Assembly (NCBI RefSeq): GCF_028641065.1
Contig: NC_073396.1
Span: 13,144,001 to 13,208,000, forward strand
From: Leucoraja erinacea
Lineage: Eukaryota
Direction of reading: 5' to 3'
Length of the DNA: 64,000 nt
The position numbers and the translations under genes were made by a program. Each line of letters opens with the position of its first letter. Within the stretch, counting starts at the first letter, position 1. The notes beneath the pieces were generated by a model. The model saw nothing but the letters and a program-made list of their open reading frames with translations. It made no database searches and had not been told where the DNA came from. Below are positions 15,942-60,734 of the stretch, in pieces.

Positions 15942-16001
15942 CTCAAAGAAAGATTGGCTTTGCTGAAGAAAGAATATGCAAAGACGGTGTATAAGTTACA
16001 G
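15942..16001 (+). CDS. PALB2: PALB2 exon 2 (BRCA1-binding coiled coil)
   Basis: cccag / LKERLALLKKEYAKTVYKLQ / gtaaat; similar to human [20 protein letters not shown]. Confidence 0.95.
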
Positions 16002-20147: not shown

Positions 20148-20605
20148 GTAGGTTCACAGTAAATTGGTTTGAGCTTTAGACTGGATTATGTCTTTAAGTT
20201 GACATTTCAATCATAATGGGCCTTGGTGAAGAATTGAATTTTCTTGCGTTTCTTAGTTTCCACAAGGAGTGTAAATCCTAAAGGGACATGTAGGTTGTAC
20301 AACTGAAAATTGAGAGTTCATCTGCTCTTCAGATCTCCTATGTTTGGCTTTGTGTTCAGTGCCTGGAGGTGCTTGAGACTGAGTTAAGGGTGGGAAGTCT
20401 TAAGCAAAGGCTCTGAGGAAAACAGAGCCTTCTGTTGCTTTAATTCTGCCATGATGCTGATTAGTTAACTTGCATTTCCCGATCGATGCTTTTACAATTT
20501 TAAGAGCTCCTCAGTATAGTTGTTGTGTCAATATGTTCTATATCCATCTCTTTTTTTTTAAGGTTTGGTAATAGGCCTAATGTGTCTTTCTTGAATCTTT
20601 TTAAG

Positions 20606-26334: not shown

Positions 26335-27560
26335 AACAAAAGTAAGGATAAGCCTGGCAACTACAAGCCAATTAGTTTAACCTCGGCAGTGGAAAACTTT
26401 GAAACATTGATCCAGAACAGGATTAATGGTTTCTTGGAGATAAATTAATTAAGCAAGGCAAACCACCATACGAGAGAAAACAAAGTGCTGGAGTAACTCA
26501 ATGGGTCAGGCAGCATCTATGGAGAACATGAAAAAGTGATGTTTTTGGTCGGGACCCTTCTTCATTGTCTTATCCAACTTGATGTAGTTTTTTGATGAGA
26601 TAACAGATAAGAGTTGATGAGGATAATGCAGATGATGTGAAGTGCATAGATAGCCCGAAGGCTTGTGATAAGATGCTACATTGTAGGGTTATCAGCAAAG
26701 ATGAAGCCCATGGCATAAAAGGAGCATTGATGGCACAGATATGAAGTTGGATCAATACAAGAAAAATGTTTTGATTACATCATGGAAAAAAGCCCTTTGG
26801 TCCACTGAGTGCACGCCGACCATCGATTATCCATTCATACTAATTCTATGTTATCCCATTTTCGCATCCACACCCTCCCTTGGGGCAATTCACAGAGGCC
26901 AATTACTCTGCAAACCTGCGCATCTTTGGGATGTGGGAGGAAAGCAGAGCACCTGGCGGAAACCCACACACTCGGAAAGACAAGCAAATTCTAGGGGCAT
27001 TTGTGGTGGGGCCATGCTAATTTAAATGTATAGTAATGATCAAGAGTTGAGTTGTGAACCACAATTTTTAAATTTGTAGATGACACTAACCGTGGCAATA
27101 TTGCGAACTGTAAAGAAGATAGTGACAGATTGCATTAACACGTAAACAGGCACATGGAATGGGCTGATGAAGTTAAATGCAAAAAAGACATGTTATGAAT
27201 TTTAGTAGAAAATGAGGAGAGACAATGTTGAATAATGTTTTTAAATGTTCTAAAATGAATGTCAGAAGGGACCCAGAAGTATGTGTATACTTATCAGTAG
27301 AAGTAGGTTGGGAATGAGGTAATAAGGCAAATAAAATATTTGTTTTGATAATAGAGGCACTGAGTACAAAAGCAGGAATGTTGTACTGAAGCATGATAAA
27401 ACACTGCTCAACCTCAACTAGAGTGCTGTGTTCAATGTTAGTCATCACATTATAGCAAGGATGTGAAGACATGAGAGGGGGGTCGTAAAAAGTGGTTACT
27501 GGGATGAGTGACTGCAATCACAAAGATACATTAAAGTGCAAGAACTGTTTCCCTTGGAGA
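26335..27560 (+). mobile_element. Old CR1 LINE RT remnant with nested Penelope-type and SINE inserts
   Basis: PGNYKPISLTS-like and FVDDT-like remnants; inserts at ~26475-26565 and ~26780-26990. Confidence 0.7.
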
Positions 27561-30067: not shown

Positions 30068-30890
30068 AACAAGGAGTAGGAATAGGCTATTCATACGTCC
30101 TCCATTTATTAAGATAATGGCTGTTATCTGAATGTAACCTCAGCTCAGCAGGTCGATTTCATTATAATCTCGGGTCATTATTCCCATCTATCTGCAGTAA
30201 CTTTTTACCTCCTTTCTTATAAAGAATCCATCTACTGCTGTCTTGAAAATATTAAAAGTTCTGCTTCCACCTGTGTCTTAAATGGGCGTTCCCTGGTTCT
30301 AACCACCCATAATAGGAAATGTACTCCCTGGATTCGCCCGTCAAAATTTAATGTTTCGCTTAAATCTCCTCTCTTACCCACTCCAGTAGGTACAAATTTA
30401 GCCTGTCCAATCTTTCAACATCAGACAATCCACCCAATCCAGGAATTAATTTAATCATGTGTAGGAAGGAACTGTGGATGCTGGTTTAAACCGAAGATAG
30501 GCACAAAAGGCTGGAGTAACTCAGTGGGTCATCTCTGGAGAAAAGGAATAGGTGACGTCACCAATTAATTTAGTCAGTTCCAACAGCACCCAACATATTA
30601 ACATTCTTACTTGAACACAAAGATCAACATAGGGCACTCCAAATGTTTTTCATCAGTTCCTTATATAACCGGAGCATAATCTCCCTACTTTTATATCTGA
30701 TTATCCTAGTAATAAACAATAATATTCTGTCAGTTTTTCCAATTATTTGCTATCCTTTTGTGAAATGTGCACTGGGCCATTCAGATACCTCTGCATCTCA
30801 GGGCTCTGCAAACTCTTGATATATTGATAAAATATCTTCTTATTATTCCTGCAAAATTAATAGATTTGCATTTTCCCATATTTGCCAGAT
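30068..30890 (-). mobile_element. Decayed CR1 LINE 3' part
   Basis: ggagtaggaataggc 3' end and reverse ORF2 remnants. Confidence 0.6.
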
Positions 30891-31231
30891 CTGTTCCCCA
30901 AGAATACAATTTTGTCTAATAAAGTCCAGAACCCTTTTCCAAGGACATTTGACTTGAAATAACTAAAATGCTGGAATAACTCAAAAGATCAGGCAGCAAA
31001 TCTGGGGACATGGATAAGTGAAGTGCTGAGTTACTTCAGCCCATACTGTATTTGTCAGTAGTGTTTTAGCTTAGAGGGAGCTCTACCTCATGCAGGGAGA
31101 AAACTATTACTTTTAAAGAATGCCACTCTAATTCTAATAATGGATACAAGGGAATTGTACAATAATCATTCAGATGAAAGCAGGTTCCTCTCCTTTGTGA
31201 TAAAGATGTTTACCCCCCTGCTTCTTATCAG

Positions 31232-36154: not shown

Positions 36155-36919
36155 ATATACTATTGCTGTGTCAAGATTATGCAGGATAAACTTGCAGTAC
36201 TTTGGTTCGTGAAACCTGTTCACCTCTTTTTTGGATGAAAACCACCAAAGATTTCAATGTGAGCAAAGTGTACAATTCTTTACAAAGCACAATGATTTAC
36301 TGAGCTACTGCACAGTGCTTTTTTTTAATTGTGGGGATATATTATAAGTTACTATGGACTATTTCGGTAAAATATTCAGTGCATAATTATTTAATATATT
36401 CAAATAATTGCAGATTTATTTTGCTTTTAACTGTGGTGATAGGACATTACAGTTCCTTTCCTAATGTACTTGAAGGGCATTCCTGGATCACTGTATATCA
36501 TGATAACCGAGCAGATTATATTTTCCTCTGTACACTGTCGGTTGAAATAACCACTAATGTAACGTTGGAAAATCTGAGTTGTATTCACATCCACTAACTA
36601 GAGCCAGCTTCAAATTTAGACGCAAAATGCTGGAGTAACTCAGTGGGACAGGCAGCATCTCTGGAGAGAAAGAATGGGAGATTGAAGAAGGGTCTCAGCC
36701 TGAAACGTCACCCATTCCTCCAGCATTTTGTGTCTACCTTCGATTTAAACCAGCATCTGCAGTCCTTTCCTATACAGCTTCAAATTTACTTCCATTTGGT
36801 AGTTGGGTTGTTGACTTTCCCTATTAAGGGGGAACTTCGAAAAGTTTCCAAAAAAGGAATGATTGTACTTGTTTAAAAAGACAAATGAAAGAGGATTATA
36901 ATGTCACAAATCTGTCTTC

Positions 36920-37687: not shown

Positions 37688-38090
37688 CAGAGCCCACCAT
37701 AATGTTTGGGACAAAGACCCATTATTTATTTATTTGCCTCTGTACTCCACAATTTGAGATTTATAATAGAAACAATCATATGTGGTTAAAGAGCGCATTG
37801 TCAGATTTTAATAAAAGCCATTTCACCATGTAGAAATTACAGTGGTTTGCATCTTGCAGTGTAGCTTCTAATTTCTGTTCATGACGTCTTCTGCAGACAG
37901 TGGTCATTGACAAATCCACACCCGACTCCTGAAGAGTGTTTCTGATCTGTCTGACAGGTGTTTGGGGATTTTTCTTTGTTATAGAGAGAATTCTTCTGTC
38001 ATCGGCTGTGGAGGTCTTCCTTGGCCTGCCAGTCCCTTTGCGATTAATAAGCTCACCAGTGCTCTCTTTCTTCTTAATGATGTTCCAAAC
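37688..38090 (-). mobile_element. Truncated Tc1 transposon
   Basis: TA+CAG TIR shared with the 41530 and 47350 copies; transposase paired/HTH fragment STGELINRKGTGRPRKTSTADDRRI. Confidence 0.88.
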
Positions 38091-38720
38091 AATAGACGCA
38101 GGAGTAGGCCATTCGGCCCTTTGAGCCAGCACCGCCATTCAAATGTGATCATGGCTGATCATCCCCAATCAGTACGTCGTTCCTGCCTTCTCCCCTAAAC
38201 CTCTGACACCCGTACTAATCAAGAATCTATCTATCTCTGCCTTAAATATATCCACTGACTTTGCCTCCACAGCCTTCTGTGGCAAAGAATTCAACATTCA
38301 CCACCCTCTGACTAAAGAAATTCGTCATCCCTTCCTAAAGTCCTTTCATTCTTTGGCTATTACCTCAAGTCCTAGACTCTCCCACTGGTGGAAACATCTT
38401 CTCCACATCCGCTCTATCTAAGTCTTTCTCACTGAGTAGAAATTCCGAAGACTAGAAGGCAGCTTCCAGATGAGGGGGAAAATTTCAAGGAGGTATGCGT
38501 GAACATATTTTTGCACAGAGGGTGATGGGAGCCAAGAACATGCTGCCAGGAGTGGTGGTGGAGGCAAATGCCATAGTGTCATTGAGGAGGCTTTTGAATA
38601 GGCACATGGACACGCAGGGATGGAGGAATATGTATCACATACAGGCAGAGGAGATTCATTTAAATTGGCATCGGACATTGTGGGCTGAAGGATCTGTTCC
38701 TGTGCCTATCCATGTTCATG
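38091..38720. mobile_element. Two back-to-back CR1 3' fragments
   Basis: Minus-strand 3' end 38091-38430; plus-strand FAQRVMG..LP fragment 38450-38720. Confidence 0.78.
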
Positions 38721-39289
38721 GGCGAACTGTTCGATGTACAGACAGAGCCAGCAAATGATGCTGAGGTAGAGGATTAGGCGTGAACGTTGAATGGCGTAAT
38801 TGCGATGTCTAATGTGTGCTCCTGCTTTAGTTTATTCAGTCTGAAGAAGGGTTTCGGCCCGAAACGTTGCCTATTTCCTTCGATCCATAGATGCTGCTGC
38901 ACCCGCTGAGTTTCTCCAGCATCTTTGTGTACCTTTAGTTTATTCCTACTCCATGGACTCACTTGTAGGTCCATGAGACAACCTGCGGCTATGGGTAGGT
39001 TCGAGGGATCCAATGTGTGCTCCTGCTCCAGTTTATTCTCCTCCATGGTCTCACCTGCAGGTCGATGGACAATCTGTGGCTGCGGGTAGGTTCGAGTAGT
39101 CTAATGCAAAGCAAAGATCCTACAGCGGATCCTCTGCTATAGGATCTTTGATGCAAAGTGCTCCTGGTGCAAGGACTCACCCACAGGAGGTCCGTGGACA
39201 GACAACCTGTGGCTGCGGGGTTGCGCTGATCGGCTGAGCTCACTCCCTGCTGCGCCGCCAGTGGCGGGCCACCGAAACGCAGCCTGGTT

Positions 39290-39341
39290 TGCGCATGCAC
39301 GCCGCGGTGCACGCTGGAATTCCCAGGAAGATGGCGGCGCG
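39290..39341 (+). promoter_or_regulatory. NDUFAB1 core promoter motifs (NRF1-like, ETS, YY1)
   Basis: TGCGCATGCACG at 39290, CAGGAAG and AAGATGGCGGC overlapping the ATG, in a CpG-rich island. Confidence 0.65.
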
Positions 39342-39516
39342 TGTGCTCTCTCGGTGCCTGCGCCGGTGGCCGCAACCTTGGAGCGGGCCAAGGACAGGCG
39401 TGGGTCTCCGGGCCCAGCTCCAGCTCCCGCTCCCGCTCCCGCTCCCGGCCGTAGCCAGCGCAAACTGCTTCCATGCTATTAGCAGGCAGCCACCCGGTGC
39501 ATCGCACCCGGCTCAG
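39331..39516 (+). CDS. NDUFAB1: Mitochondrial acyl carrier protein, exon 1 (transit peptide)
   Basis: MAARVLSRCLRRWPQ...HPAQ / gtaata; Arg-rich presequence with no acidic residues. Confidence 0.9.
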
Positions 39517-41162
39517 GTAATAAGGCAGCGTCTGACCTGGGCAGACTTCAGATGCTGTTGGCTGGTGGGCGGGAGCAGTCACCCCGGGGCCGTACTTCTG
39601 TTTAAAATACTTAAATCCAGCCAGAAAATCTCATTTATTTTCTGCAATCCATTCCTTAAAGACAGGATTTAAACTTGGGGAATTAGGCTTTAGACTTGGA
39701 GAAGTAGATATCAGCCCCCACTGATATCTACGTCTGTCATTTGCAAAGGTCAGGACATCATGTTACAAAATCTTCAATGTAGGCAAGAAATTAAACTTGC
39801 ATTTATATAGTGCTTGGTCGTGAATTCAAAACAGAGTATAACAGTAGCTTCCAGAATGGATGGGTAGTGAAGTAAATTGTGAAGAGGATATAAAGTAGCT
39901 GCAATGGCATTAGGATAATTGAACAGGTAAAGATCTGCCAAGTGGAATATAATGTATAAAAACTGTGAAGTTATCCACTTTGGTGGGAAATGTAAATTGT
40001 AAGAGATTGCAGAGATTTGTTTTCTCACAGTGATTTGCAGAAATAAGGTATGTAGTAGGTATGTAGAGTGATGGGGCAAGCTAGCATTATTGTTGCCCAT
40101 TGGTGCTTCACAAATTTATCACAGGTGAATTTTATGCAAAGGTGCTTCATTTCTTTGGAGAATTGGCAAGACAATGCCAGCAATGTTGCATGTTCCTTAT
40201 TTACCAAATTATGTTGATGCGTTTGAAGTTTAATGTTCATAGAAGATTTAGTTGGCATGCCTGGAATAGGAGGGTTGTCATGAGCAGAAAGGTTGGTCAG
40301 GGGTCCATATTTCGCCCTTTGAGCGCTACATTGCCATTCAACAAGTTCGGTAGGATGAGTTTTCTAGGATGAAAGGTGAAGAGTGACTGAATGATCAACA
40401 GAGTAGATTTGAGGAGATTCTTTCTACATGTGGAAAAATCTAGTTTGGAGTTAATTTTCAATAGTTCAATTGTGTTTTATTGTCAAGTGCAAAACAGTGA
40501 AATTCTTTTAATTCATATAATTCAGTTGAGGTGATTTTTTTTTCCTGTGGTTGTGGCGGTTGGAAATGTGTTTCGTCAAAGCTGAATGCAGCCTCCAAAT
40601 GTTTCTAAGGCGGTAGAAGAATACTTGATAAGTGAGGAAGTGAAAGATTATCATGATTAGGCAGAAATTAGATCAGCATGGTTAAGCCCAGTGTAGGAGA
40701 CACTAGATTGGGGCAATCCCATGACAAACACCTCATTTGGCCCTTCACTGGATGCTAGGGGAGCCGCAAAGGAAGCATTGTAGGCTCTGTTAAGTAAGAA
40801 TCAGCACTGAGCTGGTAGCAGGAGAGTTGATAGGTGGAAGAGTAAGTTAGGTTTGGCTCCCGATTTGTAGGGCAGAGTGGTACCCTGTGCAGCATACAAA
40901 ATGTATGATAAATTTATCACAGCAAATATTGAGAAAGTAGTCAAACTTTCAGCAGTCAAGTTAGTGTGCAGATCTGTTTCTTAGTATTTTTGGTAGAGGG
41001 ATAACTACAGATTCCGTTTGCAGATAGGTTGGACGTTTACCTCCTGTTCTGGCTCATTTTTATCCGGCAGTCAATGTCGGCCGCCCATTCTTTTTAAATT
41101 AAAGATTTTTTTTAGATAATAACACATTACTGTTGTGCTCCTTCCCTTGTTCCTGGCTCTCT

Positions 41163-41191
41163 CCCCCCCCCCCCCCCCCCCCCCCCCCCCC
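41163..41191. repeat. Poly(C) tract (~29 nt)
   Basis: Directly visible. Confidence 0.9.
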
Positions 41192-41529
41192 ATCAGAGAA
41201 GAAGCTGGTGCAAGTGTGCATGTATTTTAAGAACCAAGGGTAGTGGTTCAACTACCAAAAGGTTATAATATAAACCCTAAAGCCTGAACCTCATATTATC
41301 AGACAGTGCCGTCAGAGAGAACAATTTAATATTTTGGATCAGGAATTAAGGGATATGCTCCAACTTTCTTTTGTTACTCCAGTTTGCATCTCTTCCAAAT
41401 AACTATTAAGAGGATTGGCTGTATTTTTGTGTGGCTGTAAATTTATTGATTGTAATTGTGCATTTCATAACATTAAAGTGTTTCATCTTTGGAATATTTC
41501 AGAGCAATGCTGCAATGTAATTTTGCATA

Positions 41530-42357
41530 CATTGCCCTCCATAATGTTTGGGACAAAGGCCCATCATTTATTTATTTGGCTCTGTATTCCACAATTTGAG
41601 ATTTGTAATCAAAACAATCACATATGGTAAAAGTGCACATTGTCAGATTTTAATAAAGGCCATTTTTATACATTTTAGTTTCATCTTGTAGAAATTACAG
41701 CTGTGTCTATACATAGTCCCCCCCCATTTCAGAGAACCATAATGTTTGGGACACAGCAATGTCATGTAAATGAAAGTAGTCATGTTTAGTATTTAGTGGC
41801 ATATCCTTTGCATGCAATGACTGCTTGAAGTCTGCGATTCATGGACATCACCAATTGCTGGGTGTCTTCTCTGGTGATGCTCTGCCAGGCCTGTATTACA
41901 GCCATCTTTAGCTTATGCTTGTTTTGGGGGCGAGTCCCCTTCAGTTTTCTCTTCAGAATATAAAAGTCATGTTCAATTGGGTTCACATCGGGTGATTGAC
42001 TTGGCCACTCAAGAATTTATCAATTTTTAGCTTTGAAAAAGTGGTTTGCATCTTGCAGTATAGCCTCTGTATTACTATTCATGAAGTCTTCTGCGGACAG
42101 TGGTCATTTGCAAACCCACACCTGACTCCAGAAGAGTTTTTCTGATCTGTCGGACAGGTGTTTGGGGACTGTGTATAAACACAACTGTAATTTCTATATG
42201 GTGAAACCAAGATGTATAAAAATGGCCTTTATTAAAATCAGACAATGTGCACTTTAACCACATGTGATTTTTTTTCTGTAACAAATCTCAAATTGTGGAG
42301 TACAGAGGCAAATAAATAAATGATGGGTCTTTGTCCCTAACATTATGGAGGGCACTG
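41530..42357 (-). mobile_element. Internally deleted Tc1 transposon
   Basis: Long TIRs CA(T/G)TGCCCTCCATAATGTT, TA TSD; DDE C-terminal NPIEH...AWQSI...LVMSMNRRLQAVIACKGYATKY. Confidence 0.93.
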
Positions 42358-42376
42358 TATATGTATATATTCATAG

Positions 42377-42589
<213 letters not shown>

Positions 42590-42623
42590 TAGATTATGAT
42601 GGCAAATATTTTTGTTTTAAAAT

Positions 42624-43035
42624 ACATAGAAACATAGAAATTAGGTGCAGGAATAGGCCATTCGGCCCTTCAAGCCTGCACCGCCATTCAATATGATCAT
42701 GGCTGATCATCCAACTCAGTATCCCGTACCTGCCTTCTCTCCATACCCCCTGATCCCCTTAGCCACAAGGGCCACAGCTAACTCCCTCTTAAATATAGCC
42801 AATGAACTGGCCTCAACTACCCTCTGTGGCAGAGAGTTCCAGAGATTCACCACTCTCTGTGTGAAAAAAGTTCTTCTCATCTTGGTTTTAAAGGATTTCC
42901 CCCTTATCCTTAAGCTGTGACCCCTTGTCCTGGACTTCCCTAACATCGGGAACAATCTTCCTGCATCTAGCCTGTCCAACCCCTTAAGAATTTTGTAAGT
43001 TTCTATAAAATCCCCTCTCAATCTCCTAAATTCTA
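42624..43035 (-). mobile_element. Young CR1 LINE 3' fragment
   Basis: RGDFIETYKILKGLDRLDAGRLFPMLGKSRTRGHSL; (CATAGAAA)n tail; near-identical to the 46069 and 59715 copies. Confidence 0.93.
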
Positions 43036-43699
43036 CAAAGGTTAACAGGAAAAAATTTAACTTTTAAACTTGACAAACCCTGATAAATAATACACCACAT
43101 CAGGGGGTGGGGGAGTAACAGCATGAACCTCAGTTAGCTAACTAATGGCTACAAAAGGTCGTATCACCTTGATCATTAACTCTCCATAGATGCTGCCTGA
43201 TCTGATCCATTGAACATTTCTGACATTATACATTTTCAGCACCAGCTGTTTTTGCTTTGGTCACGTAATGTCATTAAATGATTCTGCAAAAGATCATTTT
43301 ATGCTTTTTAATGTTCAGCCATGGGCTGGCATTGTTTTGAGTTTGGAGGTAAAGCATGGAAACGGGCCTTTTGTCCACAAGCCATCAATCACCTGTTCAT
43401 ACTATTGTTTAAGAAGGAACTGCAGATGCTGGAAAATCGAAGGTACACAAAAATGCTGGAGAAACTCAGCGGGTGCAGCGGCATCTATGGAGCGAAGGAG
43501 ATGGGCAACGTTTCGGGCCGAGATCCTTCTTCAGACTGAAGAAGGGTTTCGGCCCGAAACGTTGCTCCTTGCTTTTAAAAAAAATTGGTTTGTGACTTAC
43601 ACTCTGTGATCAGTGTGTGCCAGTGAGGGTGAATGAGTTCTAGCCCTCCGCCCAGAAGCTAACCATGAGTAAGGCAAATTATATTAGGAGGAAAGAGCA

Positions 43700-43985
43700 A
43701 AGTGGTCTAATGGGTAGAACTACTGTCTCTCAGCTAACTGACTTGGGTTCATTCCTAACCTCTAGTGCTATCTGCGTGGAGCTTGATTGTTCTCCCGGGG
43801 CGTTTTCCCCTGCATACTCTGGCTTCCTCCCACATCACAAACATATGCTGGTTGATGGATTCATTGGTTACTGTAATTTACCCCTAGTATTGGTGATGGG
43901 TAAATTGGTGGTCATATGGGAGGGAATATTTTAGAAGGAATTAATTGCTCTGAGAGCTGGCACAGATTCAACAGGCTGGTGAAAT
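43700..43985 (+). mobile_element. Degenerate V-SINE
   Basis: ggttcattcc box B, gttttcccctg...ctggcttcctcccacatcacaaa core. Confidence 0.65.
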
Positions 43986-44046
43986 ATGGGGGAAATGTTT
44001 TTTTTGTTTGATGATTCTTGGAGTGATCTTTGGTCAATTAGACTAG

Positions 44047-44244
<198 letters not shown>

Positions 44245-45125
44245 TGATTGTAAGCTTCAATCATTGCTGTTTTTGTGTCCTATAAATTCTGTTCCCTTTC
44301 CCTGAATAAGGTGATTTACATTATGGTGCATGAACTCTAACAAGGAGCCTTCCAATACCACGTTCAAATGGTTGGTTGTCATGTGTCATACTAGACCTAG
44401 TCATTGACTCTAACCCTAACGCACACGCACATGCTTTTGGGGACCAGGGCTTTCTGCTTACCAGAGCTCCGTCCCATAAATGACCGAGTAGTTAGTGTCC
44501 TCTTGCAGCAAGACTTGGGAGCGACTGAGTAGCATATAACATTGTTCTATACCTCCCAGCAATGACTGCCTCTCCCTAACATTCATTTAATATCAGTGCT
44601 AAGACTGAATCTCCCTCACTTACCTTATCCAGCAGCACACAACATAAACCTTCTGACAAGCCACATCAATGCTTACAACAATGGCAATTAAAGATTATAT
44701 TTGGTGGTTTGGTATTCTGAGGGCTTGGAGCTCACCTCTTGACTCCCCCAAAGACTTTCCTCCATTTTCAAGAGGCAAATTAGGAGTGGAATGGGTCAGC
44801 ATCCATGAACCTGGTTGGCTGCAGCCGAGAAACTTGTGCAAAGGAATCTGCTTGATAGCAGTCGATCTACTACTTGAATGTTCACTCCCTCCACCATGCA
44901 AAGTGGGTGTAGCGTACAGTATCTGTGCAGGTGCAGCATTTCCCCAATGTTCTTTTGGCAGCAGCTCACAACCACAGGTGTTACCACATGTATTACCACT
45001 TAGATTGGCATGGCCAGCTGTTGACTCCAGGGTACTTGATGGATATCTGGCAAAACGTAACGCTGTACAGTGTTGGTATGTTGGTGATAAATAACGCTGA
45101 TAAAACCAGTCTCCAGGGCCACTAA

Positions 45126-45239
<114 letters not shown>

Positions 45240-46068
45240 ATGTGTTTCTTTGTTCCTGGAGAATCATTGCAGGGTAAGAGATTTCATTTGTCTAATTAAA
45301 GGGGAGGGGCAATGTGCACAAAGTCACATTAATCTGTCTTCAGTCACATGAGCTGTGAGGGGCAAGGGAAATATTAATTTGTTCTCTCAGATCCCTTGGT
45401 CAGAAATAATGCAATGACATTTGTAGAGTTTTATTACAGAAGATATCTATTTGTTATTGCTGTGGGATGGATGGGAGTGGTGAGGGGTTTGGTCAGAAGA
45501 ATTGCTATGTTTGGAGCTAGTCTTCAGATTGAGAGGAGGTTGGGATTTGACAGCTCCCAATACTAGAAAAAGTCCTTTGTAGGAATTGTTCAATATGACT
45601 CTGCATGAAGTCATGGCCATGATATGACAATGTACAAGAAGCCAGTGGAACAATAGCATTGTGAGTTAATAATCTGCAAACACAAGTTCAAATCTAAATG
45701 TAGTAGTTAAGGAATGTAAATTCAGTTCAATAAATAAATCTGGAATAAATAGTACCTGAAATAGAAAGCACAAAACACCAGAGCTACTATGAAAGCATGA
45801 TTCAGTGATTTTCCTTGGAGAAGGAAATTGCCGTCTTTGAAAAATCTGACTGGTACATCTCTGCAAAGTTTATGAATGTTAATTGCCATCAGAAATGTTA
45901 CAAAGATTGTTACTACAAGCCACCACTTTCTAACGTGAGATAAATACAAGTACTGGTGATGACCATGAATGATTTTGTTTTAAAGAGGATCAAGTAAAAT
46001 ATCTCTTCTGGAGCCTATTATATTGAGTTAGACACCAATACTTGCGCAGTGTGTAGGTCAGCTATAGT

Positions 46069-47719: not shown

Positions 47720-49373
47720 TATCTTATTAAATCAGATATTCAATTGCTGAAAGGACAGCTTCAAATAATATTCTTTGCATTCTTCACTTCCCACTGGTCG
47801 CTAACCAGCTGATGAGAAGAGAAACAAATTAGATAATCATAAACATTTATGGCATGAGGTATTTGGCTCATTTGTACATGTGCTGTTATTGGGATAAATC
47901 TCCTGTTCCAGCAGTCACTCTAGCCTCAAACATTAAAAATACGCAAAGTATTTGTCTATGAGATCAGGGTTGTCTCACCTTTTCAAGCCCTGCTACTCTG
48001 CGAAATAAACTTTTCTCCCATCAAATTGATCTCAATGTTTCCTCCCAACGACTGGCAAAATCGGGGTAAATCCCTTCAAACTCCTCCAATGTTAGCTGAT
48101 GTGCTGGAACCAGAACTGTATGCAGAATTGTATCTGTGGCCTAACTAGTGTTATATGTGGGTCGAGTGTGCTCTCTTACATTCAGAAATAAAAGGGAAAT
48201 GGCTTAAAGCTGCCCTCCTAATTTCCCTTACACATTTCTCAAGTTCTGCCTGAATTGTCACTGCGAAAATGAACTTTGCATTGTAACACATCTAAATTAA
48301 GTATATACTGAATTCTCTCTTGGAATTATTATTTATTGGTAATATATGTCGTCTGGGTTGCGTTAGAGGAGTTCATGATCGTCTTCAAGCAGAACTCTCT
48401 GAGAAGCAATTGACGACCCAAGTCATTGAAATTCTGGTCCATTGGCGCCGGGATGCGAGGAGGGGAGAATCTTCCCAGTATTCGCCAGTATACATTTTTC
48501 CCACTAGGTGGCAGGGTGAGACGGGTTTGTGCCTTCACATGGAATCAGACGAGGCTGCAGATGCAGGAATCGTGAGCAAATTGCAACACAAAGATACTAG
48601 AGGAGCTCTATAATCTTTGATGCAAACTGAGGAACTCAGCGGCTCCGGCTGCATCTGTGGAGAGAAATGAAGATGAGTCCCGACTCGTCACATTTTGTCT
48701 CTGTGCCTCCGCAGATGCTGCCTGACTCGTCGAGTTACTCCGAGGTTTATACATTATGCTTTTAAATATACCGCACTTTAAAATCCACAATTTACCTCGA
48801 CTGTTACTGTACGCAACACGAGATTATTGGTAACCCGATGTTTTCCAATGCATGTTTTATATGTGGTTATCTACCTCGAGTGGAAATAGGATTACAAAAA
48901 GCCAGCACGTGCACAGCAGAGTCTGATGAAGGGTTCCGACCCAAAACTTCACCTATACTTTTCTCCAGAGTTACTCCAGCACTTTGTGTCTACGGTGTAA
49001 ACCAGCATCTGCTGTTCCTTCCTGCACAAGCCGCGGCCACGTGTACCCTGCACTCGCCCGGTGCTCCTGTTTGCTGTATCAACCTCCCCCCCCGGTTTCC
49101 CCATTCATTCGTCCCCCCTCCTCTCCTCTCCTCAGGTCTCTCTCGGTCTCTCCCACTTCTCCCTCAGTCCTAGTTCTCCCAGACACGCTTCCATTTCCCT
49201 GACAGGGTTTGGGTCGGATATCCTCTCCGGCTGCCGGCCAACCACAAGCGCTGGGATATCAGGATCTACGAGCCACCCTCCGGGCTCCTTGCATTTCGCT
49301 CCGATCAATGCAGCTCCCGGGTCGGCAGCCGCTCTCTTCCCGCTGGGCTCCTCGGCCTCCTCTCGGATGGACC

Positions 49374-49416: not shown

Positions 49417-50280
49417 GTAACCCAAGTTTACAGTCCTGAATAGAGGGGCGAAAGGGCTCCGGGAGATGACGTTTAACTGCAATTCTCTCGCGTTTAATTC
49501 AAATCCTGTCGCACATTTTTCAAAATGCAACGTACTTTTTTTGAACGAGCCTGTGGCGCTCTGATAACTGTTACAAATACGTATTTTTCGTGGGTGTAAC
49601 CAGAGCGCACGGCGTATGTACAATAGCACCGCGTGTCTCAGTACTCAGTATCGTGTGCGCAGCAGCATTCACGTGTACCGAGAATAGTACGCAAAAACAC
49701 TTTATTTTGCGTACTATTCAGGCTAGCCACAGCATCAGGTAGTTAAAAAAGAGAAAAGAAATTGATTGTAAAATTACAGAGAAAGTGCAGGATTAAAAAC
49801 GGTGTAAAGTCCACAATGAGATAGATTGAGAGATCAGGATCCAATCTTTAGCAAAAAAAGAAGTCCATTCGAGAATCTGAATTCAGTGGTGAAGAAACTA
49901 TTCTTGCATTTAGTGGTACATTTTATCATGCTTTAGTATCTTCTGCCCAAGAAAGAGGAAATAAGAGAATGACTGAGGTGTGAGTTGTCATTGATTATGT
50001 TGCCTGCTTTCCCAGGATCCCAGGAATTAGTACGTTATATGATGAGCGTTGATGGCACTGGGTCTGTACTCGCTGGAGTTTATAAGGATGAGGGAGCTCC
50101 TCATTGAAATTTACCGAATAGTTGGAGGCTTGGATAGAATGGATGTGGAGAGGATGTTTCCAATAGTGGGAGAGTCTGGGACTAGAGGTCATAGCCTCAG
50201 AATTAAAGGATGTTCGTTTAGGAAAGAGATGAGGAAGACTTTATTTGGCCAGACGGTGGTGAATCTGTGGAATTCTTAAA

Positions 50281-51687
50281 GACCAGTTAGCCTGACATCG
50301 GTCGTGGGGAAGATGCTGGAGTCAATTATTAAAGAAGCAATAACGGCACATTTGGATAGCTGTAAAAGGATTGGTCCAAGTCAGCATGGATTAATGAAGG
50401 GGAAATCCTGCTTGACTAATCTTCTGGAATTTTTTGAGGGTGTGACAAGTGAAATGGATGAAGGAGTGCCAGTGGATGTAGTGTATCTGGACTTTCAGAA
50501 AGCCTTTGACAAGGTCCCACACAGGAGATTAGTTGGCAAAATTAGAGCACATGGTATTGGGGGTAGGGTATTGACATGGATAGAAAATTGGTTGGCAGAC
50601 AGGAAACAAAGAGTAGGAATAAACAGGTCCCTGTCAGAATGGCAGGCCACTGAGTGGTGAGTGGCGTGCCGCAAGGCTCGGTGCTGGGGCCACAACTATT
50701 TACTATATATATTAATGATTTAGATGATGGAATTAAAAGTAACACTGGCAAATTTGCAGATGACACAAAGCTGGGTGGCAGTGTGAACTGTGAAGAGGAT
50801 GCTAGGAGGTTGCAGGGTGACTTGGACAGGTTGAGTGAGTGGGCAGATGCATGGCAGATGCAGTATAATGTAGATACATGTGAGTTTATCCACTTTGGCG
50901 GCAAGAACAAGAAGGCAGATTATTATTTCAATGCTGTCAGATTATGGAAAAAGGGAAGTGCAACGAGACCTGGGTGTCCTTGTACACCAGTCACTGAATG
51001 TAAACATACAGGTATGGCAGGCAGTGAAGAAAGCTAATGGCATGTAGGACTTCATAACGAGAGGATTAGAGTATAGGAGTAAAGAGGTCCTTCTGCAGTT
51101 GTACTGAGCCCTGGTGAGACCACATCCGTAGTATTGTGTGCAGTTTTGGTCTCCTAATTTGAGGAAGGACATTCATGCTATTGAGGCAGTGCAGCATAGG
51201 TTCACAAGGTTAATCCCCAGGATAGCAGGACTGTCATATGGGGAAAGATTGAGAAGACTGGACTTATATTCACTGGAATTTAGAAGGATGAGAGGGGATC
51301 TTATAGAAACGTATAAAATTATAAAAGAACTGGACAAGCTAGATGCAGGAAAAATATTCCAAATGTTGGGGGAGTCCAGAACCAGGGGCCAAAGACTAAG
51401 AATAAAGGAGAGGCCATTTAAAACTGAGATGAGAAAAAAAAAACTTTTTCACCCAGAGAGTTGTGAATTTGTGGAAATCTCTCCCACACAAAGCAATAGA
51501 GGCCAATTCACTGGATGAATTTAAAAGAGAGTTAGATAGAGCTCTAGGGGCTAACGAAATCAAGGGATATGGGGAGAAGGCATGCACGGGTTACTGATTG
51601 TGGATGAACAGCCATGATGACAATGAATGGTGGTGCTGGCTCGAAGGGCCAAATGGCCTCCTCCTGCACCTATTTTCTATGTTTCTA
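50281..51687 (+). mobile_element. CR1 LINE, 5'-truncated, RT domain to 3' end, inactivated
   Basis: KSCLTNLLEFF, VVYLDFQKAFDKVPH, GVPQGSVLGP, FADDTKL motifs with frameshifts and stops; nested in another CR1 (50035-50276 / 51690-51800). Confidence 0.95.
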
Positions 51688-52177
51688 ATGCTGAAGAATG
51701 GGGTTAGGAGGGAGAGATAGATCAGCCATGATTGAATGATGGAGTAGACTTGATGGGCCAAATGGCCTAATTCTGCTCCTATTACTTATGACCTTATGAC
51801 TTGACCTTCCCAAGGCAGTGTGAAATGTAGATGGAGTCAATGGGGAGAGAGGATGCTTTGTGCGATTTACTGGATTGCACCTACAACTCTCACCAATTGC
51901 TTGCTGTCATCATCCTAATATAGACACAAAAAGCTGGAGTAACTCAGCAGGTCCGGCAGCATCTCTGTGAAACGGTGGCGCAGCGGTAGAGTTGCTGCCT
52001 TACAATGCCAGAGATTGTAATCCGAGGCACTGACTGTGTGTACAACAGCACTGTGTCCCAACATTGTGTATGACAGGGAGTAATCCCAGCTCTGACTGTG
52101 TGAATAACAGCACTGTGTCCCACCTCTGACTATGTGTGTGCGCAGTTGTTTTTTTAATCACAATCTGTGTTCTTCAG

Positions 52178-52650: not shown

Positions 52651-53226
52651 GATCTCTATAGAGATAGAGATAAATAATTAATAAAGAGGGAGATTGTGTC
52701 TTTGTTTCTGTGCATGGATACATAAGGAATCACAAATAATGGAATCGAACAAAAAACAAAGCGCTTGAGTAACTCTGTGAGTCAGGCAGCATCTGTGGAG
52801 GGAATGAATAGACAACATTTCGGGTCAGGTCGGGTTCGAGTCTGAAGAAAGGTCCTGACCCGGAATGCCGCCTATCTATTCCCTCCACAGATGCAGCCTG
52901 ATATGCGGAGTTACTCCAGTACTCTGTGTATGGTTTGGTACTGTATATGTTTGACTGCCTTTGTGAAATCGCCGCACCTGCACCTTTCTTTGCCTCTAAT
53001 TCCAAGCTGCCGGGTTCTCTACTTCCAATCTGTTGCTGATCCTCACGTTTTCAGTCGCCTAACTCCATAGTCGGTGATTCCATCCTAATCTCTCGGTCTG
53101 TTTTCTCCTTTGAAGACGTTGGTTAAAACCCACACCAGATCACCTCTGCTGGTGCATTCGATCTCATCTTCTGTCTGGCTCCACTGTGGAGCAGCGCCTC
53201 AGGAGGTGTGAGTACACGCGTTGTAC

Positions 53227-53272: not shown

Positions 53273-53315
53273 GCGCGTAGCTTCGCGCCTGTGTATACGC
53301 GCTTGTGTGGTTATA

Positions 53316-53510
53316 TAGGAAGGAACTGCAGATGCTGGTTTAAACACAAAAAACTGCAGTAACTCAGCTGGACGGGCAGCATCTCTGGAGGGAAGTAGTG
53401 GGTGACGTTTCGGGTCTGAAGAAGGGTCTCGACCCGAAACGTCACCCATTCCTTCTCCACAGAGATGCTGCCTGTCCCGCTGAGCTACTCCAGCTTTTTG
53501 TGTCTGTCTT
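53316..53510. mobile_element. Penelope-derived inverted-repeat element with a hammerhead-like core
   Basis: aggaaggaactgcagatgctgg...gcagcatctct...ggtgacgtttcgggtc arm and its inverse; same family at ~4803, 12330, 15710, 17680, 23245, 26475, 30458, 30960, 36619, 38838, 43410, 48550, 48920, 51920, 52745. Confidence 0.8.
53412..53447 (+). ncRNA. Putative minimal type I hammerhead ribozyme
   Basis: GGGT-CTGAAGA-A-GGGTCTCGACCC-GAAA-CG-TC-ACCC: complete catalytic core, stem II, 4-bp stem I, ACGT palindrome as stem III. Confidence 0.55.
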
Positions 53511-53676
53511 CTGTGTGTTTATATATTTCCCCCTCTGATTCTGCCGCTGGTGTTGGACCCTATAAAACGTGATGTAAACGGCGAGGGGACGATCATTACT
53601 AAAACTGCAAACTGAATGCCAGCCAGGGTTGTACCTGAATAATCTCACTCGTGCTTTGTTCTCATGTTTGGGACAG

Positions 53677-56600
53677 GATTTCCCAGCAGAGGAATGGACC
53701 CAAATGGCCCGGAGCCACTGATGTCGATTCCAACCCCTTCTCCAGCCCGGGGAAAGGAAGCTGGCTTCTTCAAACACAAAGACATCTTCATGTCCCCCAC
53801 GTGGTCCGATCAAGACTCGAAACCCAGTGGGAAGGAGTTGGCGAGCAGACGACCTGCCGGCGTCCACCACCGCCCCCAGGCTCCCAATCTTGCAGTCCGT
53901 CCCAAGCGGGGAACCCGAGCCCACCCGGAGCCAGGAAACATCCCGACAACAAGGCATCACCAGGCGGGCCCCCGTGTCTCATCACATCCCAACTCGACAA
54001 GACTGGAGTCTCCAGGAGAATCTGCTCCTACGCCTGACTCCATCTCCACCACCCACACCAAACCCAACCCAGCCCCACAACACGGCAGCGCCACAGCCCC
54101 AGGACCGGGCCCAGCCTCCAGCTCTCGCCCAGGTCGCTACTCCATCCCTGGACCATTTGCCAACAACATCTCGGGCCCCATTGGAAGGTCCCAGTCGAAC
54201 TTCATCAGCGGTCAGAAGACATTGCCCGCTCCAACACTCACCTCCAGAGCGAACATTAACTCCAGCCTAGTGCTGAGACCCAGCCTTGGGTCCTTTCTAT
54301 TCACCCCTGAGAACATCACGCTGGTGGATGGAGCCCAGTCACTATCCCGGGCGGTACCTCGGCTAGAGGACTTGGATGATGTGATGAGCCACCAGGAAGA
54401 CAAGACGGGCAGGCGCCGTGTCCCGGGCTCAGGGTTGGGGCAGGAGCCAAGGCTGACCATGGGTGACGATGGGACGGGCAGCAGCAGCAGCAGCGATGCC
54501 GAAGGGGTTGCAACCGAGTCCCACCCCAACACCCCGCGGCCTCTGGCTCCGGGCCGGTCACTCAAAGCCGGTCCGGCGACACGCAGCCAGTCTGCCGGCA
54601 ACATTGCCCTGTTTACAAGACCCGGGGGCAGCCGGGGATCAGTCGGAGGGTCCCAGGGCGTTGACTACTTGCACGGGAGAGGAACGGCCCGGGACCCGGC
54701 ACCCACCCAGAAACGGGACCTCGGCTCCACTGCTGATCTCCGCGCCGCTCACTCCCCCACACGCCACTGGGAATCTGCATTGGGCTCCGGGAAACGCGGT
54801 GCTGTCTCCCCTCACACGAGCCCCACCTCACTCCACGTTCGCAATTCAAACGCAGGTAATCTCCGAAACCACCATCTGCTGACCTCAGCAGAAGTGAGTC
54901 AGCTCGGCGGCATGCAAAGGAAATTCCAGTTCAAAGACATTTCCTCCGCCGCGGCGATTAAACGTGTGTCAGAAAGTCCTGAACTGACTACACATTCTTC
55001 CAAGCTCCCAGTGGTGGGACCTTCCATCGACCAGGAAACAGATGCAGAGAGTTTGATCTGCGAGTCAGGAGCCAGCGGCTGTGCCCAAGTCCCTGGAATC
55101 CCTTCAGCTGTTCCTTCTGTGAATAATGTGGACACCACACAGACTGCACCATCACACTCACTGGGAATGGATGGAAGGTACTTGACAACGGCGCCCATCA
55201 ACACCTCTCCCAGTTCCGGGCGTTTCACCGGCCTCATCACGAGGCTTTCCACCACCGATGTCATCATATCCCGGCCTCTGACAAACAGCAGCCCACCATC
55301 CACTGAAGTTGACTATAGTGATACTCCACCCAGGGAGATGGGTCTCCAAACAGCCTTGCCATTCACATGGTTTCCCTGGAGATCACCAACGTTGTCTAAC
55401 ACCAGGCCGTCACGTCAAATCACCTTGCCCAGTGCATGGTCTTCAGGAAGAGTGGTCGTTTTACCGGGCAAGACCTCGGCACAAGTCCAGAACCAGGAAG
55501 TGGAAGTGACCACTTTGGGAAGGTTGGTTGCTCCAACCACCCCTCACTCGACTATTGATTTCTCAGACCCAACCCATTCTGGGGCACAATTCCCACCATC
55601 CTCGCCACTGCCTGTTTCGGTGACTAACTTGGACAAGTCCCAGCCATCGGAGCTTGGTCTTCTGACCAGATCACAGCCTCCTGTTGACCAGTGGGCTGTG
55701 GTAAGTTGGCAAAGGCCTGGCAGCTCCTCTCCAGCCTCGAGTGGGGCATCAGCCCTACCAACCAGCATCAGCTTGAAGATTAACTCTCATCCACCACCTT
55801 CATCTTCGGCAGAGGGTTCTTTAGTCAGTGAGGAATCTTTCACGTCATGGACGCTGAGTTCAGTGCCCAAAGGTTCTTCAAAGCTTCCTATCACACATGT
55901 TGGCACAGAAGATCTTGGCAACCTAGCAATGCTGTCAGCACAGTCTTGGTTAACTGAACAACGGCAATGGAAAATGTTGACGACGTTAGCCAATGTTGCT
56001 GAGCCTGATTCCATGGTGGAAACAAGCAGCCATGGATGGTCACCTACACCAGGCTCTTCAGCTCATCCCAAAATCACTCCTCAACTCTCGTCAACTTTAG
56101 TACCAACTGAGTTATTTATAACACATAGCACTCCTAGCGCCTCAACACTCAGCATGGATACCAGACAGACATGGAGCCCAGACGTCAGTCGGACACTGAG
56201 CCCAGACGTCAGTCAGACACTAAACACAGACGTCAGTCAGACACTGGGCCCAGAAGTCAGTCGGACACTGAGTGCAGGCAGCAGCCAGACACTGCTAACG
56301 GATATCACTCAGACACAGAGCACACACATCAAAAGGACACAGAGTACAGACATAGATTGGACACAGAGCAGAGATGTCAGTCCGATCGAGAACACGGGCA
56401 TTACTGGGCACAGATAGTCAGACCAAGAGATGCATCAGTCAGACCCAGAGCACAGACATCAACTGGACAGAAAGCATCGACATGAGCCAGACGGAGAGCA
56501 CGGTTGTGAGTGAGACAGAGAGTGCAGGCAGCAGACGGACATTCAGCACAGATGACAGTCAGACAGAGGGTTCAGATATCAGTCAGACAGAGAGGACAGA

Positions 56601-58941
56601 CATCAGCTGGACATTGGGCCCGAATATCAGTCAGACACTGACCATGGATATTAGTGAGACACAAAGCCAGGACATCATTAATACACTGACCTCACACATC
56701 AGACCTACACTGAGTACAGATGTCAGTCAGACACAGAACACAGACATTAGTCAGACACTGGGTATGGGCAGCAGTCTGACACAGAACATGGGTGTCAGTT
56801 GGACACAGAGCACAGACATAAGGCGGACATCAGGCCCAGATGTCAGTCAGACACTGAAGCCAGACATCAGTCAGACACTGGGCCCAGACATCAGTCAGAC
56901 GCTAAGCACAAACATCAGTCGGACATTGAACACAGACGTCAGTCGGACACTGGGCCCAGACGTCAGTCAGACACTGAGTGCAGGCAGCATCCGGACACTG
57001 CTAACGGATATCACTCGGACACAGAGCACACACATCAGGACACAGAGTACAGACATAGATTGGACACAGAACAGAGATATCAGTCTGATCGAGAGCACGG
57101 GCATCATTGGGACAGATAGCACGAACATCAGTCAGACAGAGAGCGCAGACATCACTCAGACAGAGAGCGCAGACATCAGTCAGACACAGAGCGCAGACAT
57201 CAGTCAGACAAAGAGCGCAGACATCACTCAGACAGAGGACAAAGACATCAGTCAGACACAGGGCACAGACATCAGTCAGACAGAGAGCGCAGACATCAGT
57301 CAGACACAGAGCACAGACATCAGTCAGACAGAGGACACAGACATCAGTCAGACAGAGGACACATACATCAGTCAGACACTGAGCAGGGACAGTCGGTCAC
57401 TGAGCGCAGACATTACTCAGTCACTGGGCACGGATGCCAGTCAGACCCAGAGCACAGACATCAACTGGACAGAAAGCATCGACGTGAGCCAGACGGAGAG
57501 CACGGTTGTGAGTGAGACAGAGAGGTCAGACATCAGCTGGACATTGGGCACAAATATCAGTCCGACACTGGACCCAGACGTCAGTCGGACACTGAGTGCA
57601 GGCAGCAGCCGGACACTGCTAATGGATATCACTGAGACACAGAGCACACACATCAGGACACAGAGTACAGACATAGATTGGACACAGAGCAGAGATGTCA
57701 GTCCGATCGAGAGCACGGGCATTATTGGAACAGATAGCACAGATGCCAGTCAGACCCAGAGCACAGACATCAGTCAGACACTGAGCGCAGACATCAACTG
57801 GACAGAAAGCATCGACATGAGCCAGACGGAGAGCATGGTTGTGAGTGAGACAGAGAGTACAGGCAGCAGACGGACATTCAGCACAGATGACAGTCAGACA
57901 GAGGGTTCAGATATCAGTCAGACAGAGAGGACAGACATCAGCTGGACATTGGGCCCGAATATCAGTCAGACACTGACCATGGATATTAGTGAGACACAAA
58001 GCCAGGACATCATTAATACACTGACCTCACACATCAGACCTACACTGAGTACAGATGTCAGTCAGACACAGAACACAGACATTAGTCAGACACTGGGCAC
58101 AGACATCAGTCGGACACTGATTGCAGGCAGCAGCCGGACACTGCTAACGGATATCACTCAGACACAGAGCACACACATAAGAAGGACACAGAGTACAGAC
58201 ATAGATTGGACACAGAGCAGAGATGTCAGTCTGATCAAGAACATCATTGGGACAGATAGCACGAACATCAGTCAGACAGAGAGCCCAGACATCAGTCAGA
58301 CACAGGGCACAGACATCAGTCAGACACAGGACACAGGCATCAGTCAGACACAGGACACAGACATCAGTCAGACACAGGACACAGACATCAGTCAGACACA
58401 GGACACAGACATCAGTCAGACACAGGACTCGGGCATCAGTCAGACACAGGAGGCATCAGTCAGAACGAGAGCACAGACATCAGTCAGACACTGACCAGGG
58501 ATATTATCCAGACCCAGAGCCAGGACACCATTAATACACTGACCTCATACGCCAGACCTACACTGAGTACAGATGCCAGTAAGACACAGACCACAGGTGT
58601 CGGTCGGACACAGAGCACAGGTGTAATTGGGACAAGGGATACATGCATCAATCAGACACGGGGCAGGGTTGGCTCTGCTCTAACTTTGCCCACACCAAAC
58701 ACCGGGTCATTTGCACTCCTGCACCCTACGTCCCAGCCAAGCATCAATACACCAGTCAGGCCAACATCGTCAGCTGGGAATACAGAGAGAGTGGGAGTTG
58801 TGCAGAGCACCGGGCAGCAGCAGCAGCAGCAGCACACACCAGCCACCTCCGGAGCTGCAAAGTACACAGTCCCACTGTCCACTCCTCCAGAGAGACACAA
58901 GCAGATTTTTATCGTGGAGGACCGGCCACCACAGGTCAGAG
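53677..58941 (+). CDS. CUB-mucin-SEA protein, exon 3 (giant Ser/Thr-rich exon; two frameshifts as assembled)
   Basis: ORFs 53664-56417, 56374-58494 and 58686-58991 tile the region; gacag acceptor and AGAG/gtacgc donor are both phase 1; 5265 nt. Confidence 0.7.
56170..58660 (+). repeat. Coding 24-nt (8 aa, ~DISQTQST) tandem repeat with higher-order duplications
   Basis: GACATCAGTCAGACACAGAGCACA-type units; block 56453-56762 recurs almost exactly at 57788-58097. Confidence 0.93.
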
Positions 58942-59089
58942 GTACGCCTGAACTGAACCACTTAGTGTGGCTGGGCTGGTTAAGTTTTTAGCAACCGATG
59001 ACGTCCAAAATGTTGACGCTGGGCAACTGAACAATAATAATGGATGGGAGGAGGGAGGAGGGAGACGAAGAAATGATCGCGGTGGGACA

Positions 59090-59714: not shown

Positions 59715-60586
59715 AACATAGAACCATAGAAAATAGGTGCAGGAGTAGGCCATTCGGCCCTTCGAGCCTGCACCGCCATTCGATATGATCATGGCTGATC
59801 ATCCAACTCAGTATCCCATCCCTGCCTTCTCTACATACCCCATGATCCCTTTAGCCACAAGGGCCACATCTAACTCTCTCTTAAATATAGCCAATGAACT
59901 GGCCTCAACTACCTTCTGTGGCAGAGAATTCCACAGATTCACCACTCTCTGTGTAAAAAATGATTTTCTCATCTCGGTCCTAAAAGACTTCCCTCTTATC
60001 CTTAAACTGTGACCCCTAGTTCTGGACTTCCCCAACATCGGGAATAATCTTCCTGCATCTAGCCTGTCCAACCCCTTAAGAATTTTGTAAGTTTCTATAG
60101 GATTCCCCCTGAATCTTCTGAGTTCCAGCGTGTACAAGCCGAGTCTATCCAGTCTTTCTTCATATGGAAGTCCTGCCATTCCAGGAATCAGTCTGGTAAA
60201 CCTTCTCTGTACTCCCTCTATGGCAAGAATGTTGTTCCTCAGATTAGGAGACTAAAACTGTACGCAATACTCCAGGTGTGGTCTCACCAAGACCCTGTAC
60301 AACTGCAGTAGAACCTCCCTGCTCTTATACTCAAATCCTTTTGCTATGAATGCTAACATACCATTTGCTTTCTTCACTGCCTGCTGCACCTGCATTCCTA
60401 CTTTCAATGACTGGTGTACCATGACACCCAGGTCTCGTTGCATCTCCCCATTTCCTAATCGGTCACCATTCAGATAATAGTCTACTTTCCTGTTTTTGCC
60501 ACCAAAGTGAATAACCTCAGATCCACATTATACTACTCTTCCTGCATTTTGCCCACTCACCCAACCTATCCAAGTCACCTTGCCTC
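59715..60586 (-). mobile_element. Young CR1 LINE 3' part
   Basis: QRDLGV...LVRPHLEYCVQF, YEERLDRLGLYTLE...RVVNLWNSLP. Confidence 0.94.
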
Positions 60587-60734
60587 CTAATAACTAAAGC
60601 TTCGTGTCCAAATGCTGACAATTTGTCCAGATGATTAATATATATGTACAAGCTTCCCAGCCTGAGCCTTTCCAAATGTGCCATTCTGAAAAGAACCCTA
60701 TGCCCCATCTTTCCAATATACTGAACCTCCATAA

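Follow-up and report, generated by a model that had tools for sequence, protein, structure and literature searches.

Hammerhead-bearing inserts in a batoid gene region as probable truncated 3' ends of Penelope-like elements

Minimal hammerhead ribozymes are an established feature of the pseudo-LTRs (pLTRs) of metazoan Penelope-like elements (PLEs), for which the relevant sections of PMC4209133 (Cervera and de la Pena 2014) give a consensus that covers type I motifs from the Xena, Poseidon and Neptune elements of fishes, coelacanth and Xenopus. The same sections record thousands of single truncated copies, already report pairs on opposite strands, and describe a PLE hammerhead that did not cleave as a monomer and cleaved at a low level as a dimer; the 56 Fig. 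S3 motifs consulted in that work include none from a cartilaginous fish. The described layout of PLE insertions includes an inverted 5'-truncated copy, a tail of 30-40 bp on one end and a target duplication (passages in PMC8557442 and PMC3846280), and palindromes at the inverted junctions have been interpreted as self-priming (PMC3846280). For Poseidon_Ac of Anolis, the portions of PMC11167929 drawn on here indicate that two internal reverse transcriptase (RT) start sites create the tail, that both target strands are cut and extended, that the hammerhead requires protein in order to cleave although insertion in vitro does not depend on cleavage, and that RNA-seq ends are absent at the cut site. 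The purpose of the PLE hammerhead is a still-debated point (PMC8557442).

Here we describe a repeat family in the window, by which we mean the whole 64,000-nt stretch of Leucoraja erinacea DNA that was analysed. A blastn comparison of the insert at 53318-53511 with the window recovered one family of 16 loci, 56-351 bp each and 2,428 bp in total, in good agreement with the preliminary description, which had counted about 15 dispersed short related inserts; judged by eye, they fall into about four subfamilies. The family shares with the minimal type I hammerheads of PMC4209133 the CUGANGA box, an unpaired base, a G-C-closed stem II (G10.1-C11.1), GAAA, the palindromic CG at 15.2-16.2 and UH, together with pyrimidine-rich upstream DNA and an abundance of single truncated copies; its stem II has 4 bp with a CUCG/UUCG loop, and its native stem I of ~2 bp lies at the low end of the 2-5 bp given in that source. 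With the insertions of endonuclease-bearing (EN+) PLEs and Poseidon_Ac (PMC8557442, PMC3846280, PMC11167929, as far as the passages on insertion structure go) it has in common head-to-head arms, a tail of ~35 bp at one end, target duplications, junction palindromes, two 3' ends corresponding to two RT start sites, and no RNA ends at the cut. Unlike these elements, it is known from pLTR-sized pieces only, and whereas the ORF of the Anolis element starts at stem II, most of the cores described here have no ATG there. The metazoan retrozymes (PMC7229834; bioRxiv 10.64898/2026.07.22.740005, in the parts that define the group) are likewise short, non-coding, hammerhead-bearing and related to PLE pLTRs, but they form head-to-tail tandem repeats with circular RNAs and canonical type I ribozymes (helix III, 6-bp helix I; PMC7229834), whereas the window inserts are solitary or inverted and their cores minimal. 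We regard the family as a batoid addition to the known PLE hammerheads, and a retrozyme or SINE reading is not supported. The literature searched yielded no description of the batoid family or of a stop at the hammerhead edge; the family may well be annotated in Repbase/Dfam, which lay outside this search.

Four genes occupy the window: DCTN5 on the minus strand, PALB2 (~15575 to 36151), an acyl-carrier gene (~39300-45250; PF00550 match) that is presumably NDUFAB1, a name taken from synteny, and a fourth gene that combines a large mucin-like exon with a weak match to CUB (E 0.013). Among named proteins, the PALB2 exon at 20605-22350 comes nearest to those of batoids (Pristis 74%, other rays 64-70%, as compared with 50-58% for sharks), which indicates a skate or ray as host. 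DCTN5 and PALB2 start head-to-head with ~500 bp between them (15090-15620), and a DCTN5 intron contains a GC-rich, internally repeated stretch (8058-8752) with open frames on both strands. In the fourth gene, a very large Ser/Thr-rich mucin-like coding stretch (53643-58991) is built on an 8-residue repeat with a 24-bp period and ~81 copies, and its stop-to-stop frame changes near 56400 and 58300-58500 may be assembly slips or real frameshifts. Other mobile DNA includes LINE fragments with repeated 3' ends, which we take to be CR1-like, at 50280-51799 and 59716-60589 (shorter ones at 12938, 13742, 38090, 42623 and 46068), the first of which accounts for RVT_1 matches at 50280-51034 that are unrelated to PLEs, and a minus-strand N-terminal fragment of a Tc1-type transposase at 37779-38138 (PF01498 and PF13565, both just under cut-off). 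The hammerhead-bearing inserts had been placed in introns and UTRs of all four genes; introns of all four do carry them, while the UTR part was not borne out, the inserts at 4807 and 36619 lying ~0.85 kb and ~0.5 kb, respectively, beyond the last coding exons.

The core at 53416-53443 (plus strand, C3 at 53416) is a complete minimal hammerhead: CTGAAGA, one unpaired A, a stem II of GGGT/ACCC (53424-27/53432-35) around a 4-nt loop, GAAA (53436-39), and then a palindromic ACGT that supplies the CG, followed by TC. The cut predicted earlier, after 53443, agrees with this layout. A strict descriptor that demands stem II, the palindromic pair and UH matches the window three times (38841, 43536 and 53416), whereas 100 Markov-resampled windows averaged 0.08 matches and never had more than 2; a loose hammerhead pattern was not above chance (9 matches vs 5.1 expected, with 9 of 100 shuffles as high). 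These three are complete, as the preliminary description had it, whereas its fourth best core, at 15792, is decayed (position 10.1 is A, position 16.2 is C); the decayed copies that it named (~4905, 12430, 23340, 36682, 48923 and 52842) do exist. Of the hammerhead searches it proposed, the descriptor recovered complete cores, and Rfam had no matching model: there was no hammerhead match at gathering score in the window and none up to E 10 in two copies (53300-53530 and 38800-38950), the first giving generic hairpin and miRNA models below threshold and the second nothing useful.

In copies in native context, (C)AGT precedes the core and stem I consists of 2 pairs followed by a mismatch, and across copies 59% of stem I cells are paired vs 82% for stem II. 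The covariation in stem II by which the earlier proposal was to be judged did not exceed that of shuffles, the observed score of 0.049 being reached by 42 of 500 of them (23 arms), and the main change in this stem is one-sided, from U-A to U-G. Counted over hand-set spans in 15 of 23 arms, 7/139 core positions depart from the pooled consensus, as compared with 132/798 downstream non-CpG positions (Fisher p=1.5e-4) and 28/109 CpG sites. Such low divergence implies that the core is common to the subfamilies, and we read it as constraint in the source elements with neutral decay in the scattered copies.

Several loci retain enough structure to be read as individual insertions. The hairpin at 53318-53511, in an intron of the CUB-like gene, consists of a minus-strand inverted arm with a tail (53318-53416; 5' end at +18, counting C3 as +1) and a forward arm without one (53414-53511), with 3-nt microhomology at their junction, and it is flanked by a 14-bp target duplication with 1 mismatch (left 53304-53317, right 53512-53525), a score reached by 1.5% of 400 random intervals. 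At 38838-38932 (plus), a single arm with the complete core at 38841, a 2-bp stem I and the short 3' end has a 13-bp duplication, and the hairpin at 43410-43577, in an intron of the acyl-carrier gene, is a perfect fold-back at the core's 5' edge, with a tailed minus arm and a plus arm that carries the complete core at 43536 and no stem I. Two arms extend upstream of the core: the plus-strand copy at 15681-15885 in PALB2 intron 1 (111 bp of pyrimidine-rich family DNA, decayed core at 15792, 10-bp duplication) and the minus-strand, tailed copy of another subfamily at 12330-12680 in a DCTN5 intron (~230 bp, also pyrimidine-rich, with a decayed core and an approximate upstream limit); these extensions are 72% and 75% pyrimidine and have little mutual similarity. 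The first of these inserts lies within a 320-bp intron, ~55 bp from the acceptor.

Further loci vary on the same plan. The hairpin at 36619-36774 joins a short minus arm to a tailed forward arm with an internal deletion, inside an exact 14-bp duplication, and the tailed minus arm at 30458-30562 breaks off at the ACGT palindrome, where a few bases fold back, and has a 14-bp duplication with 1 mismatch. At 4807-4930, a tailed minus arm is accompanied by ~11 bp of a forward tail end, its 8-bp duplication being borderline (5.8% of random intervals score equally high). The hairpin at 17678-17827 (a short minus arm and a tailed forward arm) has no core, and the facing arms at 23243-23467, which may be one or two insertions, comprise a diverged minus arm (23243-23309) and a tailed forward arm with a decayed core (23334-23467). 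The remainder are a single decayed minus arm with the short end (26475-26564), a decayed minus arm without core and with a short forward piece (30958-31045), an old, decayed two-arm hairpin (48624-48748), a forward arm with an internal deletion, a tail and a decayed core at 48923 (48917-49028), a short minus arm without core (51914-51969) and a two-arm hairpin of a diverged subfamily with a decayed core at 52842 (52752-52935).

The preliminary description had overlooked that 53318-53511 is a 194-bp hairpin, and this bears directly on its reading of the ribozyme. It had GGGT/ACCC also closing stem I at 53412-53447, but the apparent 5' strand of that stem, the plus-strand GGGT at 53412-53415, is really the end of the inverted arm, within which it is the reverse complement of stem II's own ACCC. 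Minimum-energy folding predicts -36.0 kcal/mol for 53400-53460, as compared with -13.3 if the hammerhead stems are imposed; the corresponding energies of the entire insert are -121.4 and -89.0 kcal/mol, with stem II pair probabilities that round to 0. With the hairpin so much more stable, the prediction is that the inverted arm blocks the ribozyme fold in this copy. The 53405-53455 transcript that the preliminary description put forward for cleavage is likewise predicted to form a hairpin, and so suits that purpose poorly. Single arms fold no better than shuffles.

Arm ends were tabulated against the copy at 23334 for 22 arms, which remain of 26 rows once pieces of 19, 20 and 30 bp are removed and two rows belonging to one arm are joined; the short plus arm at 43536 is left out. 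The 3' ends form two classes ~35 bp apart, equivalent to an optional tail: nine at +119 to +128 and nine at +84 to +102, with four elsewhere. In a family arm such as 23334-23467, a 7-8 nt word found before the short end recurs in the tail, and both copies of this word can pair with one upstream word; alternative hairpins may underlie the two RT start sites. The 5' ends are grouped at -5 to +4 (11), at +18 to +27 (5) and at +38 or later (6); many arms stop at the hammerhead's 5' edge, with 9/22 counted as stopping within -5 to +4 and 2 of the 11 core-reaching arms going further. Two facing arms are present at 7/16 loci, with a very short second piece at 3 more, and the two-arm loci have a single tail in 5/7 cases and two tails in 0/7. 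Their junctions vary among loci. Of 17 hand-set intervals, five are flanked by target duplications of 10-14 bp, and for each of these no more than 1.5% of 400 random intervals score as high; beyond the borderline 8-bp case, 11 intervals have no convincing duplication. As a cause of the 5' stop, splicing at the AG before the core was rejected, the copies at 23334, 38838, 48917 and 52839 retaining this AG. For self-cleavage as a source of truncation, three arms begin at +24 to +27, close to the cut (+28/+29), which is too small a number for a call, and genome-wide mapping gave no loose-end peak there among the matches listed.

A Penelope coding sequence was sought inside and outside the window. 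Neither motif scans nor tblastn with 120 PLE proteins (E 0.01) detected remains of a PLE ORF in the window, and a full-length copy of the family was not encountered either. A peptide search for an ORF that would begin within the arm had no result among longer proteins, and a profile of the arm's open frame gathered 44 proteins, mostly short spurious translations from other assemblies, none with an in-frame PLE domain. Among 41 translated relatives, one (P0127) has, after its arm and tail, a stretch that in another reading frame could be the C-terminus of a PLE endonuclease. Against a profile of 120 PLE C-termini it scored 24.8 bits, the top of 246 peptide-frames (next, 20.5), as compared with a mean of 12.6 +/- 1.7 and a maximum of 18.8 bits in 100 shuffles, the stretch having first been chosen by eye; a second endonuclease block was not significant (87/300 shuffles as high). 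The sequence hints at a partial tandem.

The exact family pattern had no match in viral and metagenome contigs, and a relaxed pattern built from the repeats found 1 viral, 21 metagenome and 12 prokaryote loci, none similar to the window family (blastn, E 1e-3). Ten of these loci were inspected by eye: eight, all from the 21 metagenome loci, belong to two unrelated PLE families and two are likely chance bacterial matches. The larger family (seven loci: L002, L006, L007, L012, L016, L017 and L020) has short, tailed and fold-back copies like those of the window, and at L017 a GIY-YIG ORF (PF01541, E 3e-6) lies upstream of the hammerhead. An ORF-linked PLE therefore yields the same forms as the window family. 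Seven of 11 arms in this metagenome family begin at -2 to -5, where the search pattern forces arms to include +1 and does not force them to stop just upstream; the arms end at ~+84 or at +113 to +121. We observe that it is an unrelated animal PLE with a 4-bp stem I and a self-complementary stem II, and that L017 contains rearranged duplicate endonuclease ends. In the other family, represented by L013, a hammerhead motif lies upstream of an RT ORF whose best 120 longer relatives contain PF26215, PF28514 and in part PF01541 or PF00078; Pfam run directly on this RT ORF gave no match. The L013 stretch at 417-3580 has the layout of a two-ORF PLE, in which the hammerhead is followed by a 648-codon open frame without Pfam match and then by an overlapping RT frame.

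Taken together, the motif, which fits the published consensus (PMC4209133, in its sections on the minimal motif), and the insert anatomy, which fits PLEs, support the Penelope origin and the minimal dimer-type hammerhead proposed at the outset, and from them we infer a PLE origin for the window family. With a probability of about 0.8, we interpret the inserts as dead-on-arrival, 5'-truncated 3' ends (pseudo-LTRs) of several related endonuclease-bearing PLEs, in which the hammerhead is a passenger. By analogy with Poseidon in Anolis (the mechanistic passages of PMC11167929), the element's RT/GIY-YIG protein would bind its own RNA downstream of the hammerhead and nick the target DNA, giving rise to the 10-14 bp duplication. 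Reverse transcription would begin inside the RNA at ~+90 or ~+127 from C3, hence the optional tail, and would mostly abort within ~130 nt, often at the hammerhead's 5' edge, the template being copied uncut through the cleavage site. The head-to-head hairpins could then arise if another cDNA were started on the opposite strand, or through snap-back at a short palindrome overlapping the core start. In source elements the hammerhead is probably constrained and would need a dimer or protein help, while in the scattered copies it would decay or be buried in the hairpin, with ribozyme activity presumably lost.

Mapping of contigs and reads to window 15600-15960 at 80% likeness extends these observations genome-wide. 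Matching contigs, which are not copy numbers, amount to 33,330 of 26.4 million in run X1, 30,662 of 27.7 million in X3 and 26,162 of 46.2 million in X6; the family is very abundant, with tens of thousands of contigs per run. Majority letters in X1 restore G10.1 (80%) and G16.2 (70%) at the 15792 copy, with A at 16.2 in 26%, as expected from CpG decay. In contigs of three genomes, the upstream extension of the 15681 copy occurs in multiple copies. The junctions of the 15681 insert are bridged, with 1-2 differences, by contigs of two other organism labels, which makes this insertion older than their split.

The preliminary description had favoured a separate retrozyme- or SINE-like family mobilised in trans, and of the alternatives to the PLE reading the one that survives best is a non-autonomous SINE-like family whose short (100-130 nt) or hairpin units are themselves the masters, transcribed from host promoters and mobilised by PLE protein in trans. 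It would account for the strong pile-up of 5' ends at the core start, seen in the window and again genome-wide, where the largest groups of loose ends lie just before 15789-15792 in all four runs, and for an upstream depth (15717-15781) of just ~3-11% of core depth in X1. The family is also plentiful in poly(A) RNA, 8,081 of 12.9 million reads (~5% of the run) from an oligo-dT library matching it, about equally in both directions, and a pLTR alone is able to mobilise DNA in trans (PMC3846280, in the passage concerned). A short fixed template would likewise produce the 5' stop near the core seen in 9/22 arms, and this counts against the PLE reading. However, the loose ends agree poorly (0.31-0.38), and their consensus sequences include the other subfamily's upstream DNA and the perfect fold-back form, so that the pile-up combines true truncation with a reference-mapping effect. 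The GIY-YIG-linked metagenome family has the same stop, which therefore needs no separate master. Moreover, the 5' ends are variable, two copies extend further upstream and the hairpins do not share a junction; the inserts have no tRNA head (0 with ARAGORN), no Rfam match at gathering score, no A-run of 8 or more and, as to Pol III boxes, a B-box-like match in just 1 of 16. We consider such a family unlikely.

Much less probable is a non-LTR retrozyme, in which head-to-tail hammerhead repeats would give rise to self-cleaved circular RNAs and the window inserts would be dispersed monomers. Retrozymes are derived from PLE pLTRs and have been counted in one chondrichthyan genome (the survey portion of bioRxiv 10.64898/2026.07.22.740005), and a few contigs and 14 RNA reads contain joints that go back by 33-102 nt. 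Against this, the 64-kb window contains no head-to-tail tandem array of the family, its pairs being head-to-head, and the motif is minimal, whereas retrozymes are recognised by a canonical type I ribozyme with tertiary contacts (PMC7229834, in its account of the motif). Nor do read ends pile up at the predicted cut: in the one oligo-dT run RNA depth does not drop there (3,536/4,066 before, 3,233/3,739 after) and no place has many molecule ends, in a library type that would capture few of the cleaved ends. A hairpin (MITE-like) DNA transposon with an incidental hammerhead likeness would fit the long inverted repeats at seven loci (z -8 to -11 for the two tested), but is highly improbable given that the arms are unequal and variably truncated, that single arms have target duplications of their own, that duplication length ranges from 10 to 14 bp and that the core is better conserved than the remainder.

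Within the PLE reading, the stop at the hammerhead edge is common to two unrelated PLE families, that of the window and the metagenome family with the GIY-YIG ORF. One might speculate, as a doubtful though conceivable extension, that the PLE hammerhead serves mainly as an RT stop and self-priming signal, not as a cutter, with cDNA passing the uncut cleavage site, coming to a halt at the fold's 5' edge and snapping back on a short palindrome there, and that it mass-produces hairpin units of ~100-200 bp, some of which would spread as non-autonomous Penelope parasites. The importance of these observations is modest: they extend PLE hammerheads to batoid fish, where an abundant family places long hairpins in introns. 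The crowding of 5' ends at the edge of the hammerhead offers a cheap genome-wide readout of a possible role for this ribozyme in RT stopping or re-priming.
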